Shown one piece after another: positions 2,813-60,128 of a stretch of 64,000 bases of DNA. A program made the translations under genes and the position numbers. Numbering within the stretch: position 1 is the stretch's first letter; each line of letters starts with the position of its first letter. A model generated the notes under the pieces. The model was not told where the DNA came from. It ran no database searches and saw nothing but the letters and a program-made list of their open reading frames with translations. Where the stretch lies: positions 48,067-112,066 of the forward strand of contig JADHYE010000002.1 of the NCBI GenBank assembly GCA_016782605.1, given 5' to 3'. This stretch comes from Minisyncoccota bacterium. Its GTDB lineage: Bacteria > Patescibacteriota > Minisyncoccia > Minisyncoccales > RBG-13-42-11.

Positions 2813-3709
2813 TTACTGATTAAATAAATTTGTGCTGAGATATTTTTCTCCCCTATCTGGAAAAATAACTACAATCTTTCCTGATTTTATTCTTTTGGCC
2901 ACCTCAATAGCTGCATACATTGCAGCACCACTACTCATGCCAACAAAAATTCCTTCTTTTTTAACAATTTGCCTTGCTGTTTCAAACGCATCTTCGGTCT
3001 TTACCATAATTGTTCTATCTATTTTTGATGGGTCATATATTGACGACGCTATCGCTTCTTTCATATTCTTTAATCCTTGAATATAATGACCCCTGACAGG
3101 ATGAGCACTAACAATCTTTATTTTGGGATTCTTTTCTTTTAAATATTTACCCACTCCCATAATCGTGCCAGAGGTTCCAATTGCTGAAACAAAATAATTA
3201 ATATCTCCTTTTGTTTGTCTCCATATTTCCTCTGCTGTTTTCTTATAATGGGTAAGTTTATTATATTCGTTTGAGAATTGGTCTGGCATAAAGTATTTGT
3301 CAGGATTTCTTTCAACCAATTCTCTTGCCTTAATTATTGCTCCATCGGTTCCAAGTTTTGGGTTAGTTAAAATTAATTTTGCTCCAAATGCTAAAATGGT
3401 TTTTCTTCTTTCGATTGAAACCGCTCTACTCATAACGATTTTAACTTTGTAATCCTTTATAGCCCCGAGCATAGCCAAACCAATCCCAGTATTGCCTGAA
3501 GTTGGTTCAATAATAGTCTTATCTTTTGTTAATACCCCTTCTCTTTCTGCTTGTTCAATCATTTCTAAAGCAATCCTATCTTTTACGCTACCCGTTGGAT
3601 TAAACCCTTCTAGTTTTGCATAAATTAAAACATAAGGACTAGGGTTAAGTTTATTAATTTTTACCAGAGGAGTATTTCCAATTGTTTTAAGAATATTTTT
3701 ATACAACAT
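2813..3709 (-). CDS. cysK: cysteine synthase (O-acetylserine sulfhydrylase) family, PLP-dependent
   Basis: 298-aa ORF with IGNTPLVKINKL, PLP-lysine motif SVKDRIA, and GNTGIGLA. Confidence 0.85.
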   Translation of the reverse strand: MLYKNILKTIGNTPLVKINKLNPSPYVLIYAKLEGFNPTGSVKDRIALEMIEQAEREGVLTKDKTIIEPTSGNTGIGLAMLGAIKDYKVKIVMSRAVSIERRKTILAFGAKLILTNPKLGTDGAIIKARELVERNPDKYFMPDQFSNEYNKLTHYKKTAEEIWRQTKGDINYFVSAIGTSGTIMGVGKYLKEKNPKIKIVSAHPVRGHYIQGLKNMKEAIASSIYDPSKIDRTIMVKTEDAFETARQIVKKEGIFVGMSSGAAMYAAIEVAKRIKSGKIVVIFPDRGEKYLSTNLFNQ

Positions 3710-3725
3710 AATTTTAATTTAAGTT

Positions 3726-3754
3726 AAAAATAAAAAATCCCGACTTCCTCGGGA
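3726..3754 (-). terminator. attenuator terminator in the cysK leader
   Basis: Minus strand UCCCGA-GGAAG-UCGGGA followed by UUUUUUAUUUUU, 17 nt before the cysK ATG region. Confidence 0.6.
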
Positions 3755-3782
3755 ATTATTGTTTTAAGCTAATTATTATAAA

Positions 3783-3866
3783 TCAAACAAAACAAACGCT
3801 TCCCGAGGGTATCCCGAGAATGCAACAATAAATATTGTTATTTTTATGCAATCTAATTTCTCCCAT
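3783..3866 (-). CDS. candidate cysK leader peptide MGEIRLHKNNNIYCCILGIPSGSVCFV (27 aa)
   Basis: Own translation. Tandem Cys codons UGU UGC lie at 3827-3822. The ORF covers two copies of CUCGGGA, complementary to the terminator 5' arm. Confidence 0.45.
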   Translation of the reverse strand: MGEIRLHKNNNIYCCILGIPSGSVCFV

Positions 3867-3872
3867 ATTTTA

Positions 3873-3901
3873 ATTTTATCATAATTAAATAAAAAAGTCA
3901 A
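3873..3901 (-). promoter_or_regulatory. sigma70-like promoter for the cysK leader
   Basis: Minus strand TTGACT (3901-3896), 17-nt spacer, TAAAAT (3878-3873). The ATG at 3866 is the 7th nt after the -10 box, which is leaderless geometry. Confidence 0.5.
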
Positions 3902-3910
3902 CCCATCCAT

Positions 3911-4016
3911 CAAAAAACCGCCACCGCCGAAAGGCGGATTGGCGATTTTTATCGTGGCTTGCCCTGAGCAAGCGAAGCGAGTCGAATGGGCTCGCCCTAG
4001 CGGACGATTTTAGAAC
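3911..4016. repeat. R-family element with bidirectional terminator hairpin
   Basis: aaaaaaccgccaccgccgaaaggcggattggcgattttt (GAAA-loop hairpin, A-run/T-run flanks), then gccctgagc..gaatgggc module, then ctagcggacgattttagaac. Close copy at 4661-4790. Confidence 0.8.
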
Positions 4017-4080
4017 TTTAAGCCGGGAGGAGGTGTTTAAGTATCCTGAAGTGGTGCTGGCTCAACTAAGAGAACTGACT

Positions 4081-4096
4081 GGACGATGTTAGAGCC
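4081..4096. repeat. R-family core only (ggacgatgttagagcc)
   Basis: Same 16-mer core as 2768-2808, 4001-4016, 4751-4790, 40924-40939 and 41568-41583, without the inserted module. Confidence 0.6.
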
Positions 4097-4101
4097 CTAA
4101 A

Positions 4102-4123
4102 CAAAAAACCAGCTAATAAGCTG
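4102..4123 (-). terminator. intrinsic terminator
   Basis: Minus strand CAGCU-UAUU-AGCUG followed by GUUUUUUGU. Confidence 0.6.
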
Positions 4124-4285
4124 ATTTCTTGTCCCAAGCAAATCTCTTTCTGAGGCTTACTTGGGGAAGGAAGGGGAAGAAGGATGGGTTCTTATCCTGC
4201 CTAATCGCCCTACATTGCTGTAGAGAAAGTGCAATTACCCTTACGGACCATTGTCCTAACCATGCTTCCCCTTTTGAGGTAAGAG

Positions 4286-4564
4286 TTAACGGAACTTAAT
4301 CTGTTGAGTCATGTCGTTTACTCGGTTTACCATTAAGGTAACTTTGCCCATGAGACGTTTGACGAACTCAAGGAGTTCATCTTTTGTAACGAACTCCATA
4401 ACGTCGTCAGTTAAACCGTCCATCTCTTGAGCAAATTGACCAACTCTCTTCTTTATGTCATTCTCGTCTAGTTTGACTAAACGATGCAACGACGTATCAC
4501 GAAGAAATTGGCCTATTAAGACCTGGCAACCAATCTTATTAAACCGCTCATCAGTCATTTCCAT
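4286..4564 (-). CDS. hypothetical protein (92 aa)
   Basis: ORF preceded by a strong SD (AAGGAGGTGA, 6-nt spacing). No family recognised. Confidence 0.6.
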   Translation of the reverse strand: MEMTDERFNKIGCQVLIGQFLRDTSLHRLVKLDENDIKKRVGQFAQEMDGLTDDVMEFVTKDELLEFVKRLMGKVTLMVNRVNDMTQQIKFR

Positions 4565-42339: not shown

Positions 42340-42519
42340 TGCCCCCAGCAGGAATTTCACCCCGCACCTTTTTAATGTGTCCCCACTCCGATTCGAACGG
42401 AGATTATAACCTCCGGAGGATTATGCTTTATCCATTAAGCTATGGGGACATAAAGGTGCGGGGCAGGCCTGCATTTTAAGTTCCGGAAACTCATGTTCTA
42501 TCCATTAAACTATAGGGGC
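42340..42519 (-). tRNA. interrupted tRNA-Arg(CCG)-like gene (5' 52 nt + 108-nt insert + 3' 20 nt), possibly a pseudogene
   Basis: 42519-42468: GCCCCTA-TA-GTTT-AATGGATA-GAAC-A-TGAGT-TTCCGGA-ACTTA-AAAT-GCAGG. 42359-42340: TGAAATT-CCTGC-TGGGGGC-A. Acceptor pairs 7/7 and T-stem 5/5, but the T-loop is non-canonical. Confidence 0.65.
42378..42449 (-). tRNA. tRNA-Arg (anticodon CCG), canonical 72 nt, nested inside another tRNA gene
   Basis: GTCCCCA-TA-GCTT-AATGGATA-AAGC-A-TAATC-CTCCGGA-GGTTA-TAAT-CTCCG-TTCGAAT-CGGAG-TGGGGAC-A. All stems pair. CCA is not encoded. Confidence 0.9.
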
Positions 42520-59177: not shown

Positions 59178-60128
59178 CTACCACAATTTAAGGTTTTCTT
59201 TAATTTTTTCCTGCGGCTTATCAAAATCGGGCAGCCTCCCGACTAGGGTGTAAAATTCAAGTTCTTTTAATATGTCAGCTGCTTTTGCTTTATCGTAATT
59301 TATCCAAGAGCATTTTTCCAAATTGAAATCTATAGGAACGTTTTTTTCAATTTGAGCCAAATCTCTGGAAAGAAAAGCCTGCTCCCTGTATTTGAGAAGC
59401 GTTTCTCTCTGCTTCGGTTTAAGGTTTTTGGCTTTTCCAGAATTTTCCTCAAGTTCTTTATACAAATTATCCAGAGTGCTGAACTTCAAAAGAAGCTCAA
59501 TGGCTGTTTTTTCTCCGATTCCGGTAACTCCCGGGATATTGTCGGAAGCATCTCCCCTCAACGCCTTAAAATCCAATACTTGCTCGGGTAAAAGACCTTG
59601 TAATTTTTCTTTAACCAGGCTTTCGTCATACAGAACAACGTCTTTCACTCCCTTTCTTAAAGCGAAGAGCTTTGTCTGTTTATCAACCAACTGCAAAGCG
59701 TCCAAGTCGCCACTGACAATAATTGTTTCAATCGGCGGAACTATTTGCTTTCTCGGCGATAAAGCAGCAATGGTTCCGATAATATCGTCTGCTTCAAACC
59801 CCTGCTTTTCAAAAATGGGTACATTGAATAATTTTAAAACTTCTTTTATCCTCGGAATCTGCTGGTACAGTTCCTCCGGAGCTTTCGGCCTTTTTGCCTT
59901 GTATAGCTTGTATTTTTTATGCCTGAAGGTCGGTGAAGGCAAATCAAAGCAGGCGGCCATGTAATCAGGATGGAAATCCTTTATCGCTTTGAAAAAAACC
60001 AGCAGAAATCCGTAAACAGCGTTTGTTGTCTCGCCTTTTTCCGTTGTTAAAATGGGCAAAGCGTGAAAAGCCCGGTGGATTATGGAATTGGCGTCAATGA
60101 TTAAAATTCTTTTATGTTCTTTTTCCAT
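59178..60128 (-). CDS. 5'-3' exonuclease (Pol I N-terminal/FEN-like), stand-alone
   Basis: ILIIDANSIIHRAFHAL, H3TH region DNIPGVTGIGEKTA. ATG 60128 is preferred. The track TTG start 60155 reads through element C2. Confidence 0.88.
   Translation of the reverse strand: MEKEHKRILIIDANSIIHRAFHALPILTTEKGETTNAVYGFLLVFFKAIKDFHPDYMAACFDLPSPTFRHKKYKLYKAKRPKAPEELYQQIPRIKEVLKLFNVPIFEKQGFEADDIIGTIAALSPRKQIVPPIETIIVSGDLDALQLVDKQTKLFALRKGVKDVVLYDESLVKEKLQGLLPEQVLDFKALRGDASDNIPGVTGIGEKTAIELLLKFSTLDNLYKELEENSGKAKNLKPKQRETLLKYREQAFLSRDLAQIEKNVPIDFNLEKCSWINYDKAKAADILKELEFYTLVGRLPDFDKPQEKIKENLKLW

Follow-up and report, generated by a model that had tools for sequence, protein, structure and literature searches.

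A candidate cysteine-sensing transcription attenuator, probably read from a leaderless transcript, ahead of cysK/M in a Patescibacteria genome

The CPR/Patescibacteria are uncultivated bacteria with tiny genomes and few recognisable regulators, and to our knowledge almost nothing is known about how their genes are regulated. The 64-kb stretch of DNA analysed here (the window) raises the question of how such an organism might control a cysteine synthase gene that is preceded by a short, cysteine-containing reading frame and a terminator. The product of this gene is identified as cysKM by TIGR01136 (383.6 bits, above the family cutoff), and is 100% identical to an NCBI protein labelled 'Candidatus Pacebacteria'. 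In E. coli, trpL and the his, leu, thr and pheA leaders are leader-peptide attenuators (Yanofsky 1981). An earlier note, made from the letters of the window, proposed that amino-acid attenuation logic is applied to cysteine at this locus, and homologous leaders, covariation and simulation all lend support to that proposal. We consider it probable that transcription of cysK/M is controlled by ribosome-mediated attenuation of the trp/his/leu type, with charged tRNA-Cys as the signal sensed. What is directly observed comprises the sequence elements of such a device, the alternative pairings with the energies computed for them and, in relatives, the conservation and covariation of these features.

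The leader and its surroundings lie on the minus strand (Table 1). The promoter in front of the ATG that the earlier note had drawn as TTGACT-17-TAAAAT is present as described, and we find a TG extension of the −10 box in addition. The 27-codon reading frame with UGU UGC and a third Cys codon is found just where it had been placed, with its UGA stop (3785-3783) 14 nt downstream of region 2. The two arms proposed after the Cys pair were also positioned correctly, region 2 (3808-3800) being complementary to region 3 (3755-3747) at 9 of 9 positions, and the predicted terminator is indeed present in front of cysK/M. The ATG of the gene itself, at 3709, follows 27 nt past this terminator. On the other side, the hairpin that closes the upstream unit is part of a repeated intergenic element, family D1, and limits read-through from upstream into the leader promoter. 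The two strands of the window together contain only seven short ATG-initiated reading frames with tandem Cys codons, from which the chance of one landing in a leader of about 160 nt is about 1%. In the other six, no −10-like hexamer is present within 14 nt of the ATG, on which ground we rejected a wider cysteine regulon in the window; the one that was checked (59970-60050) sits within a long minus-strand reading frame.

Table 1 Features of the cysK/M leader and its flanks, in window coordinates.
Feature	Position	Strand	Remarks
Terminator-like hairpin CCGCCTTTCGGCGGTGG with U-run CGGTTTTTTG, closing the upstream unit	3921..3937	-	
−35 hexamer TTGACT	3901-3896	-	promoter 10/12, spacer 17 nt
Extended −10 TGaTAAAAT	3873..3881	-	hexamer TAAAAT 3878-3873, TG 3881-3880
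Leader ORF MGEIRLHKNNNIYCCILGIPSGSVCFV, 27 codons + UGA	3783..3866	-	AUG at predicted transcription start
Tandem Cys codons UGU UGC (codons 14-15)	3822..3827	-	
Region 1 UUCUCGGG, pairs with region 2	3813..3820	-	anti-antiterminator or pause hairpin
CUCGGGA arm (first copy)	3818-3812	-	
Region 2 CCUCGGGAA, antiterminator 5' arm	3800..3808	-	begins 13 nt past last Cys codon
Antiterminator AU-rich inner helix	3759..3795	-	5' strand holds last codons and UGA
Distal Cys codon UGU, 3 codons ahead of stop	3792..3794	-	
Region 3 UUCCCGAGG, antiterminator 3' arm	3747..3755	-	overlaps terminator 5' arm
Intrinsic terminator UCCCGA-GGAAG-UCGGGA with U-run	3726..3754	-	hairpin 3754-3738, −9.5 kcal/mol
Region 4, terminator 3' arm	3743-3738	-	
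Terminator U-run UUUUUUAUUUUU (U6-A-U5)	3737-3726	-	
Cysteine synthase gene (CysK/CysM subfamily), 298 aa	2813..3709	-	PF00291, 3.9e-69

The leader has the classic 1:2 / 2:3 / 3:4 layout. The earlier note had treated the first two arms as two copies of one sequence, the first of which would be covered by a stalled ribosome; their positions are right and the predicted covering is kept in our model, but the pairing of the copies with each other had been overlooked. Region 1 of the resulting 1:2 hairpin is the first copy: UUCUCGGG (3820-3813) pairs with CUCGGGAA (3807-3800) over 8 bp at −9.0 kcal/mol. Folding of the whole 156-nt leader gives z = −3.0, and the minimum free energy structure includes the 9-bp antiterminator that the note had predicted. 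The antiterminator segment (2:3) reaches −25.4 kcal/mol with z = −5.8, a value equalled by none of 200 shuffles, whereas 1:2 plus 3:4 together amount to −18.5 kcal/mol. Because the antiterminator is thermodynamically dominant, the OFF state needs an actively translating ribosome, and an untranslated leader is predicted to read through rather than to super-attenuate.

We propose the following course of events, in which the transcription start site, the stalling, the coupling of ribosome and polymerase and the physiological response are what we infer. Transcription would begin at the A of the AUG at 3866, give or take about 1 nt, and the ORF would be read leaderless. When Cys-tRNA is low, the ribosome would halt with UGU/UGC (3827-3822) in the decoding site, its footprint hiding region 1 (3820-3813) and stopping just short of region 2. 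The free region 2 would then capture region 3 once that has been transcribed, a pairing that would use up the 5' arm of the terminator and let polymerase read into cysK/M. With ample Cys-tRNA, the ribosome would pass region 2 and reach the UGA, where it would occupy the 5' strand of the inner helix and abut region 2. Behind the ribosome at the stop, region 2 could re-pair with region 1, leaving region 3 for region 4 (3743-3738), and transcription would end at the U-run (3737-3726). The net output should be a gene that is on when cysteine is short.

Simulations in which the RNA is blocked by a ribosome footprint yield the two outcomes that the earlier note had foreseen for the window's own leader (labelled WIN among the leaders compared): a stall at either Cys codon leaves 0 of 6 terminator pairs, and all 6 form with the ribosome placed on the stop codon. 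In five analogous leaders (L030, L092, L109, L144 and L151) a stall at the first Cys codon brings about the same switch; if the stall is moved to the last Cys codon, the terminator is still lost fully in just two of them, L092 and L109. The homologous leader L016 also switches under the ribosome, but it alone folds into the terminator even when no ribosome is present. Contrary to the model, in L165 with the ribosome at the stop, the naive footprint treatment exposes region 2 and the minimum free energy fold stays antiterminated. The footprint model is crude, and whether termination occurs hinges on kinetics and on where the ribosome is.

The earlier note had suggested that the same reading frame be sought in relatives, and it is found there with its Cys codons conserved. 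Through a search for Cys mini-ORFs and through the contigs of the closest cysK proteins, we found that three further organisms, independent relatives with a cysK 74-85% identical, have homologous leaders ahead of cysK/M (L165/L166, L178 and L016). A blastn-short search of the leader against 80 genome loci returned only short, AT-rich chance matches. The homologous peptides are MKSIKLNIQINSCCTLGTSSGGVCFCLI (L165), MKHFGPYIQNNACCILEFFSGDLCLR (L178) and MPKIDYSKIKNIFPCCCSLGGLPRCSF (L016). Tandem Cys codons are kept in all of them with synonymous variation (UGU UGU in L165 and L178), and 13 nt separate the last Cys codon from region 2 in every one of the four leaders. The N-terminal part of the peptide diverges freely among the four, and the conserved residues of its tail fall on the RNA pairing arms. 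The distal Cys, at position −3 from the stop, is present in all four peptides; a stall at this codon would favour termination, which counts against the model.

The pairings themselves covary. In the alignment of four sequences, 96% of the antiterminator cells are paired and 3 of the 9 pairs have changed on both sides, compared with 0-1 in slid controls. The terminator helix of the relatives carries compensatory A-U to G-C and C-G to U-A changes, and the 1:2 pairing is retained in L165 and L178 through U-A to C-G and G-U to A-U. At position 3800, regions 1, 2 and 3 shift jointly in L165, from U/A/U to C/G/C. The hairpin and U-run are kept in the homologous leaders, the shortest U-run being that of L016 (UUUUAAAU).

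These patterns bear on whether something other than a ribosome could flip the switch, with a small-molecule riboswitch, a T-box-like tRNA interaction or an RNA-binding protein acting on it and the Cys ORF being incidental. T-box and S-box/SAM riboswitch leaders are the usual RNA controls of cysK in Firmicutes, leaders of these kinds are generally known to control cysK-type genes in other bacteria, and the 44-nt segment enclosed by the antiterminator could in principle bind a ligand. That segment, between regions 2 and 3, is nevertheless AU-rich and unconserved among WIN, L165, L178 and L016, and what is conserved is the reading frame, the tandem Cys codons and their 13-nt spacing to region 2. 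Rfam at gathering scores finds no cis-regulatory family in the whole window, only tmRNA and one tRNA, both outside the leader. At E ≤ 10 over 3600-4300 there is no T-box or SAM family, only weak matches to the rimP and ylbH leaders, far under gathering and on the opposite strand. For want of a credible Rfam match, we rejected the T-box or riboswitch reading of the leader, and we regard a ribosome-independent switch as very improbable.

The frequency of Cys ORFs across the family tells against it as well. Tandem-Cys mini-ORFs lie upstream of the gene in 12 of 79 genome loci and 11 of 77 metagenome loci; the reverse strand, taken as a control, yields 1 and 3, respectively, so that the total is 23 against 4, an enrichment over the opposite strand of about 6-fold or more. 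Runs of at least three Cys codons, counted in the genome loci only, occur at 6 loci and at none on the reverse strand. Other two-codon amino acids show no comparable excess, the next largest being Glu with 8 against 0. Terminators accompany the Cys ORF in 11 of 22 loci, compared with 10 of 132 loci that have no such ORF (Fisher p = 6e-6; about 155 homologous loci).

The module also behaves as a unit in evolution. The nearest cysK relatives, the P0004/P0023 family (83-85% identity; L167-L172), have no leader, which we first read as non-conservation. Alignment reveals a clean absence of the entire module instead: in L167, L169 and L171 the promoter and the cysK-proximal sequence are kept, and exactly the block of about 143 nt from the ORF to the terminator is missing. 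The contigs of P0027 and P0070 (L179 and L180) likewise have no leader. The case that the earlier note had named as damaging to its proposal, relatives that keep the hairpins and lack the Cys codons or the ORF, does not occur among these relatives, as those without the ORF lack the whole module of about 143 nt. Ten loci do have a terminator and no Cys ORF (L002, L003, L013, L017, L061, L064, L067, L075, L080 and L143); we considered them as possible refuting cases and set them aside, most of them looking on inspection like terminators of the upstream gene.

In all these comparisons the module has no location other than immediately ahead of cysK/M, and it comes and goes as one block between promoter and gene; both points speak against the mini-ORF being a functional Cys-rich micropeptide, or the leader a stand-alone small RNA, with no role in cis. 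A short terminated transcript would be a discrete RNA, and action in trans is reported for certain attenuator RNAs and leader peptides (PMC7298713, PMC7968998). The N terminus of the peptide is unconserved, however, and its conserved tail coincides with the pairing arms, so we give this explanation hardly any credence.

If the ribosome does set the switch, its output could in principle be translational, as in mycobacterial Ms5788A, with the stall unmasking the start region of cysK. This is the only Cys attenuator mechanism that has been dissected experimentally, and the two mechanisms could coexist. Here, cysK/M has no Shine-Dalgarno (SD) sequence and its ATG lies in unpaired, AU-rich RNA 27 nt beyond the hairpin, while the U6-A-U5 tract after the hairpin is what marks an intrinsic terminator, and the homologous leaders retain the hairpin with a U-run. 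A purely translational output is accordingly a highly improbable reading, and we retain transcription attenuation.

How the leader ORF is initiated is a separate matter. The −10 box ends 6 nt before the A of the ATG at 3866, and the same distance of 6 nt is found in all four homologous leaders (WIN, L165, L178 and L016), L165 also having TTGACT as its −35. It is 6 nt in the analogous leaders L030, L092 and L144 as well, and 6-7 nt when L068 is included with them, and five of the homologous and analogous leaders with this spacing have a canonical −35 at 17 nt. From this conserved promoter geometry, which is the sole basis of the claim, we conclude that the leader ORF is probably translated from a leaderless transcript. 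Within the window, 7 of 62 genes have a −10 box 6-8 nt ahead of the ATG, which suggests that the organism uses leaderless mRNAs. The alternative is the same Cys attenuator with a transcript that starts upstream of the AUG or a few nucleotides off it, and with SD-independent initiation. SD sequences are rare in this genome (2 of 46 genes), so that the missing SD at the leader AUG is by itself no evidence for a leaderless start, and internal initiation that dispenses with an SD is evidently normal; in two analogous Cys leaders, L151 and L109, the AUG stands 13 and 9 nt from the −10 box, respectively. Set against this are the regular spacing just described, the other window genes with a similar geometry, and the terminator at 3937-3921, which curbs read-through from the neighbouring unit. 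A start away from the AUG seems to us unlikely, and the leaderless form of the attenuator remains our preferred reading.

The concept of a leaderless Cys attenuator has already been published; what is new here is a transcriptional, probably leaderless version in the CPR. A close precedent is found in mycobacteria, where leaderless polycysteine sORFs, among them Ms5788A and Rv2334A upstream of cysK1, act as attenuators of a 'Cys ribulon' (Canestrari et al. 2020, Mol Microbiol 114:93; bioRxiv 10.1101/834739; PMC13096801). Experiments there established that a stall at Cys codons remodels downstream RNA pairing and turns genes on (bioRxiv 10.1101/834739; PMC13096801). The dissected case is translational, the stall unmasking a sequestered SD with no terminator involved (bioRxiv 10.1101/834739). 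In both systems a short ORF with two or more Cys codons in a row stands immediately ahead of a cysteine-metabolism gene, cysK included. In mycobacteria the AUG is the start of the transcript, and the −10-to-AUG geometry suggests that this may be so for the window's leader. The window element differs in that its output would be a hairpin and U-run terminator ahead of an SD-less cysK, in a CPR host rather than an actinobacterium, and the two share no sequence homology.

In architecture, the element resembles the trp leader of E. coli. Both have four regions, with tandem regulatory codons about 13-14 nt before region 2 and an intrinsic terminator right before the structural gene, and in both the position of the ribosome would pick the fold. 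Unlike trp, the window leader would sense cysteine and probably has no 5' UTR or SD. Its stop codon comes 14 nt after region 2 and not just ahead of it as in trpL, a point that weighs against the model. Its antiterminator is also far more stable than its terminator, so that the predicted outcome without translation is read-through and not super-attenuation.

Further likenesses exist among leaders of cysS and of cys operons. The motif uORFC-8-2 upstream of Rhodobacterales cysS contains a uORF with two tandem Cys codons and has been proposed as a ribosome-mediated Cys attenuator (Brewer et al. 2021, PMC8632094). As in the window, the Cys pair is usually at codons 14-15, and a stem and U-run that come after it have been interpreted as an intrinsic terminator. 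That motif, however, precedes cysS rather than cysK/M, is confined to alphaproteobacteria and is not described as leaderless; compared by description, its Cys codons lie in the first of two stems, while those of the window lie upstream of the conserved stems. The cysS mRNA of Deinococcus deserti begins with a leaderless leader peptide of 10 aa with two Cys, its start site mapped to the AUG, and a role in transcription attenuation has been proposed for it (de Groot et al. 2014, PMC4007540); leader peptides read from leaderless transcripts thus do exist. Gene (cysS), phylum and peptide are all different from those of the window; there the start was mapped and structures were not analysed, whereas here structures and covariation are observed and the start is predicted. 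In Actinobacteria, short ORFs with Cys runs near the stop precede cys and cbs operons; no terminator hairpins were found, and Rho dependence was proposed (Seliverstov et al. 2005, PMC1262725).

Those hairpin-less actinobacterial leaders resemble, more than they do the window element, a set of 'class B' loci from archaeal-labelled metagenome-assembled genomes (MAGs). At eight loci, three in MAGs labelled Methanosarcinales, Nanoarchaeota and Woesearchaeota and five on metagenome contigs that have no label, a mini-ORF ending in CCC or CCCC directly before the stop lies ahead of the same gene. Most have a TATA-like box (TTTAAATA) 20-24 nt ahead of the AUG of the mini-ORF. None has a hairpin terminator; U-runs and a conserved TTCT...CATTGTTTTA motif follow right after the stop. 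Pfam matches of the neighbouring genes at the archaeal-labelled loci are not diagnostic of domain. It is conceivable, though we hold the idea only tentatively and think it rather doubtful, that the window element is the bacterial form of a portable cassette of promoter, leaderless poly-Cys sensor and cysK/M that travels with a horizontally spread cysK/M clade and is re-tooled to the termination machinery of each host. Literature searches on archaeal Cys attenuation and on leaderless transcripts or SD sequences in Patescibacteria returned nothing relevant. If functional, the hairpin-less loci would be, within the literature searched, the first archaeal candidates for attenuation in which a ribosome senses an amino acid, and a stalled ribosome might there mask a termination signal beside the stop codon. 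If confirmed, these relatives would be more consequential than the window element itself.

The window element extends Cys-codon attenuation, in its classical terminator-based form, beyond Actinobacteria, Deinococcus and alphaproteobacteria, as a module whose clean gain or loss leaves the conserved promoter and the gene on either side intact. It provides a compact candidate Cys-responsive switch of about 140 nt, and hints that a CPR lineage translates leaderless mRNAs and couples transcription to translation. As a protein-free sensor, specified in its sequence and backed by covariation, it suggests a way in which these bacteria may match cysteine synthesis to the charging of tRNA-Cys.

Re-reading the minus strand upstream of the cysteine synthase gene matched every element and coordinate of the earlier note, which had proposed a Cys-Cys leader peptide, apparently on a leaderless transcript, with a terminator and an antiterminator. 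The leader promoter scores 10/12 plus the TG extension in a promoter scan, with 6 nt between its -10 box and the leader ATG at 3866, and the terminator hairpin, which a U-run follows, stops 27 nt short of the cysK/M ATG at 3709. The gene encodes a CysK/CysM-subfamily cysteine synthase (PF00291; TIGR01136 above cutoff) with 100% identity to an NCBI protein labelled Candidatus Pacebacteria. At gathering level, the whole window gave no Rfam matches besides a tmRNA and one tRNA; since it carries a tmRNA, the host is a bacterium.

Features of the cysK/M leader, its surroundings and structured RNAs in the window
Feature	Position	Strand	Remarks
-35 TTGACT	3901-3896	minus	sequence reading; 17-nt spacer to -10
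-10 TAAAAT	3878-3873	minus	extended -10, TG two bases upstream
Leader ORF MGEIRLHKNNNIYCCILGIPSGSVCFV	3866-3783	minus	27 codons
Tandem Cys codons UGU UGC	3827-3822	minus	inside leader ORF
CUCGGGA	3818-3812	minus	first copy of the earlier note
Region 2, CCUCGGGAA	3808-3800	minus	complement of UUCCCGAGG
Third Cys codon	3794-3792	minus	inside leader ORF
Region 3, UUCCCGAGG	3755-3747	minus	complement of CCUCGGGAA
Terminator hairpin UCCCGA-GGAAG-UCGGGA	3754-3738	minus	followed by U6AU5; also found by terminator scan
Repeat, intact copy	4797-4660	minus	
Repeat, second half	3990-3911	minus	just upstream of leader promoter; 3951-3911 95% identical to 4700-4660
Repeat, first half	2812-2760	minus	immediately after cysK stop
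tmRNA	27817-28174	plus	Rfam, 133 bits
tRNA	42378-42449	minus	single; Rfam gathering level

The earlier note overlooked that its two 'copies' pair with each other, UUCUCGGG (region 1, 3820-3813) forming 8 bp with CUCGGGAA (3807-3800) at -9.0 kcal/mol. The leader therefore has the full architecture of classical attenuators, with a 1:2 anti-antiterminator, a 2:3 antiterminator and a 3:4 terminator. Folding of the 156-nt leader gave z = -3.0 and a minimum-free-energy structure that includes the 9-bp long-range pairing. The antiterminator segment alone folds at -25.4 kcal/mol (z = -5.8; 0 of 200 shuffles equally good), against -18.5 kcal/mol for 1:2 plus 3:4, and is thus energetically favoured, so that termination would have to be enforced by a translating ribosome. 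Such a ribosome would cross region 2 and park on the stop codon inside the would-be antiterminator loop, leaving region 2 behind it free to re-pair with region 1; an untranslated leader would be expected to read through. Seven short ATG-ORFs with tandem Cys codons occur in the 64-kb window on both strands, and the prior for one of them landing in a 160-nt leader is roughly 1%.

When the leader RNA was blocked by a simulated ribosome footprint and then refolded, an A site on either Cys codon gave the antiterminator and 0/6 terminator pairs, while a ribosome on the UGA gave 6/6. The analogous leaders of other cysK/M loci (L030, L092, L109, L144 and L151) showed the same switch with a stall on the first Cys codon; among these, a stall on the last Cys codon abolished the terminator completely only in L092 and L109. 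The homologous leader of L016 also switches, but its terminator is already present in the ribosome-free fold. The L165 leader has its stop codon 20 nt past region 2 and for that reason failed to switch in this crude model.

The contigs of the closest cysK proteins yielded two further leaders alignable to that of the window, L165/L166 and L178 (cysK identity 85% and 81%), which together with L016 (74%), the third homologous leader, gave a set of four. Their peptides (MGEIRLHKNNNIYCCILGIPSGSVCFV, MKSIKLNIQINSCCTLGTSSGGVCFCLI, MKHFGPYIQNNACCILEFFSGDLCLR and MPKIDYSKIKNIFPCCCSLGGLPRCSF) diverge at the N terminus, the conserved tail residues being those encoded by the pairing arms, and the tandem Cys is retained despite synonymous codon changes. 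The distance from the last Cys codon of the run to region 2 is exactly 13 nt in all four, approximately the 3' reach of a ribosome with that codon in its A site. Across the four leaders, 96% of antiterminator cells are paired and three of the nine pairs have changed on both sides, compared with 0-1 pairs in slid controls. The terminator stays paired although A-U has been exchanged for G-C and C-G for U-A, and the 1:2 hairpin is retained in three of the four. At the position of window 3800, region 2 of L165 carries G for A, and both of its alternative partners, in regions 1 and 3, carry C for U; this joint change is what alternating pairing leads one to expect. A further Cys codon sits at exactly the third position before the stop in all four peptides; a ribosome stalled there would cover the antiterminator arm and promote termination. 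L165 and L166 are identical in leader and cysK and diverge completely beyond about 313 nt upstream, which would fit a cassette placed in differing contexts, or else variation between strains or assemblies.

The outcome that the earlier note had named as refuting, hairpins kept without the Cys codons or the ORF, was not seen in any relative; the module is whole or missing. L167, L169 and L171, loci of the P0004 and P0023 protein family with cysK 83-85% identical, share the promoter and cysK-proximal sequence and lack precisely the ~143-nt block from leader AUG to terminator U-run (window 3866-3726), with a hydrolase gene upstream. Presence/absence of the attenuator module is a clean polymorphism that affects the whole unit. 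In the window, the cysK cassette is AT-richer than its flanks (GC 0.25-0.36 versus 0.38-0.49). Around it lies an intergenic repeat about 135 nt long that contains hairpins and has a 3' end resembling a terminator; its motif CATCGTCCRNYCAG occurs three times against 0.17 expected. The order second half, cassette, first half means that this was not simple insertion of the cassette into one repeat element. The roughly 380 nt (3905-4285) that separate the leader promoter from a hypothetical ORF of 92 aa (4564-4286) are non-coding and comparatively GC-rich (0.44-0.49). They include the repeat copy as well as two sites where a hairpin precedes a T-run, and they matched no Rfam family significantly (best E = 0.55, far short of the gathering threshold).

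The leader transcript itself is probably leaderless, judging from promoter spacing. Exactly 6 nt separate the -10 hexamer from the AUG in each of the four homologous leaders, and 6-7 nt do so in L030, L068, L092 and L144; several of these short-spaced leaders have canonical -35 boxes at 17 nt. Within the window, -10-like boxes stand 6-8 nt before the ATG of 7/62 ORFs, a local excess (on the minus strand, for example, at starts ~55477, 27172, 7606 and 5905). Of 46 long ORFs, only 2 have Shine-Dalgarno motifs ahead of them, and since the genome barely uses them, their absence before the leader AUG is uninformative. These sequence features suggest an SD-poor genome in which leaderless mRNAs are frequent.

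We surveyed 80 genome and 80 metagenome loci with cysK/M homologs 61-80% identical. Because their hosts include Patescibacteria, DPANN and other archaea, Bacteroidales, Dehalococcoidia, Clostridia and others, the gene has clearly spread horizontally. Cys mini-ORFs (ATG start, at most 60 codons, at least two consecutive Cys codons, within 350 nt upstream) preceded 12/79 genome and 11/77 metagenome loci, versus 1 and 3 in the reverse-complemented upstream sequence; runs of at least three Cys codons numbered 6 versus 0 (genome loci only). No other two-codon amino acid showed a comparable excess, the nearest being Glu (8 versus 0). Terminator-like hairpins within 150 nt of the gene accompanied 11/22 loci with a Cys ORF and 10/132 without (Fisher p = 6e-6); in loci with a terminator only, inspection mostly pointed to one that serves the gene upstream.

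A second class of poly-Cys mini-ORF lies upstream of cysK/M at eight loci (L024, L072, L076, L081, L089, L101, L102 and L146), three from MAGs labelled Methanosarcinales, Nanoarchaeota and Woesearchaeota and five on unlabelled metagenome contigs; neighbouring genes were not diagnostic of domain. In these mini-ORFs a terminal CCC or CCCC run abuts the stop codon, and most have a TATA-like box (TTTAAATA) 20-24 nt before the AUG, a leaderless archaeal geometry. A GC hairpin is absent, U-runs instead lying 5-30 nt past the stop; a conserved TTCT...CATTGTTTTA motif follows the stop, and the cysK genes have a strong SD. In L072 (about 300-365) and L076 (about 2300-2345), a second tiny ORF (MKTEQTEQILKGGYRCNPCR and MKQGGYPCNTRT, respectively, with the common nucleotide block AAGGTGGTTATCnGTGCAAT) intervenes before cysK. 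This class may represent ribosome-mediated Cys attenuation in Archaea and is the most novel lead, one that lies outside the window. L034 (labelled Dehalococcoidales) and five contigs sharing its upstream sequence (L173-L177) carry a conserved mini-ORF, M(Y/H)HCCVLLVIV(G/S)FT(G/D), about -115 to -70 before cysK, with tandem Cys at codons 4-5. No intrinsic terminator is recognisable after it in these loci, and this could be a third type of architecture that works translationally or through Rho.

The concept of Cys attenuation is already anticipated by known systems. Mycobacterial Rv2334 is cysK1. A poly-Cys ORF, Rv2334A, is located at Rv2334 (PMC13096801), and such leaderless short ORFs are experimentally established Cys-responsive attenuators in which a ribosome-binding site is unmasked (bioRxiv 10.1101/834739). 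The window element would sense the same thing but lacks this defining translational feature. Deinococcus deserti cysS has a TSS-mapped leaderless two-Cys leader peptide (PMC4007540), the uORFC-8-2 motif of Rhodobacterales cysS has an intrinsic terminator and places its tandem Cys codons at positions 14-15 (PMC8632094), and a 2005 study predicted terminator-less Cys leader peptides in actinobacteria (PMC1262725). In its proposed working, the window element is like the trp attenuator, yet it differs from E. coli trp in the predicted read-through of its untranslated leader; it is homologous to none of these systems.

Alternative folds, the footprint switch, and conservation with covariation in homologs together support the attenuation interpretation of the earlier note, and we consider it likely that the element is a Cys-sensing, ribosome-mediated transcription attenuator. 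It likely joins a leaderless start to a terminator/antiterminator of the classical type, upstream of cysK/M in a CPR bacterium. With its support from covariation, it is a clean regulatory switch from a lineage about whose gene regulation almost nothing is known.
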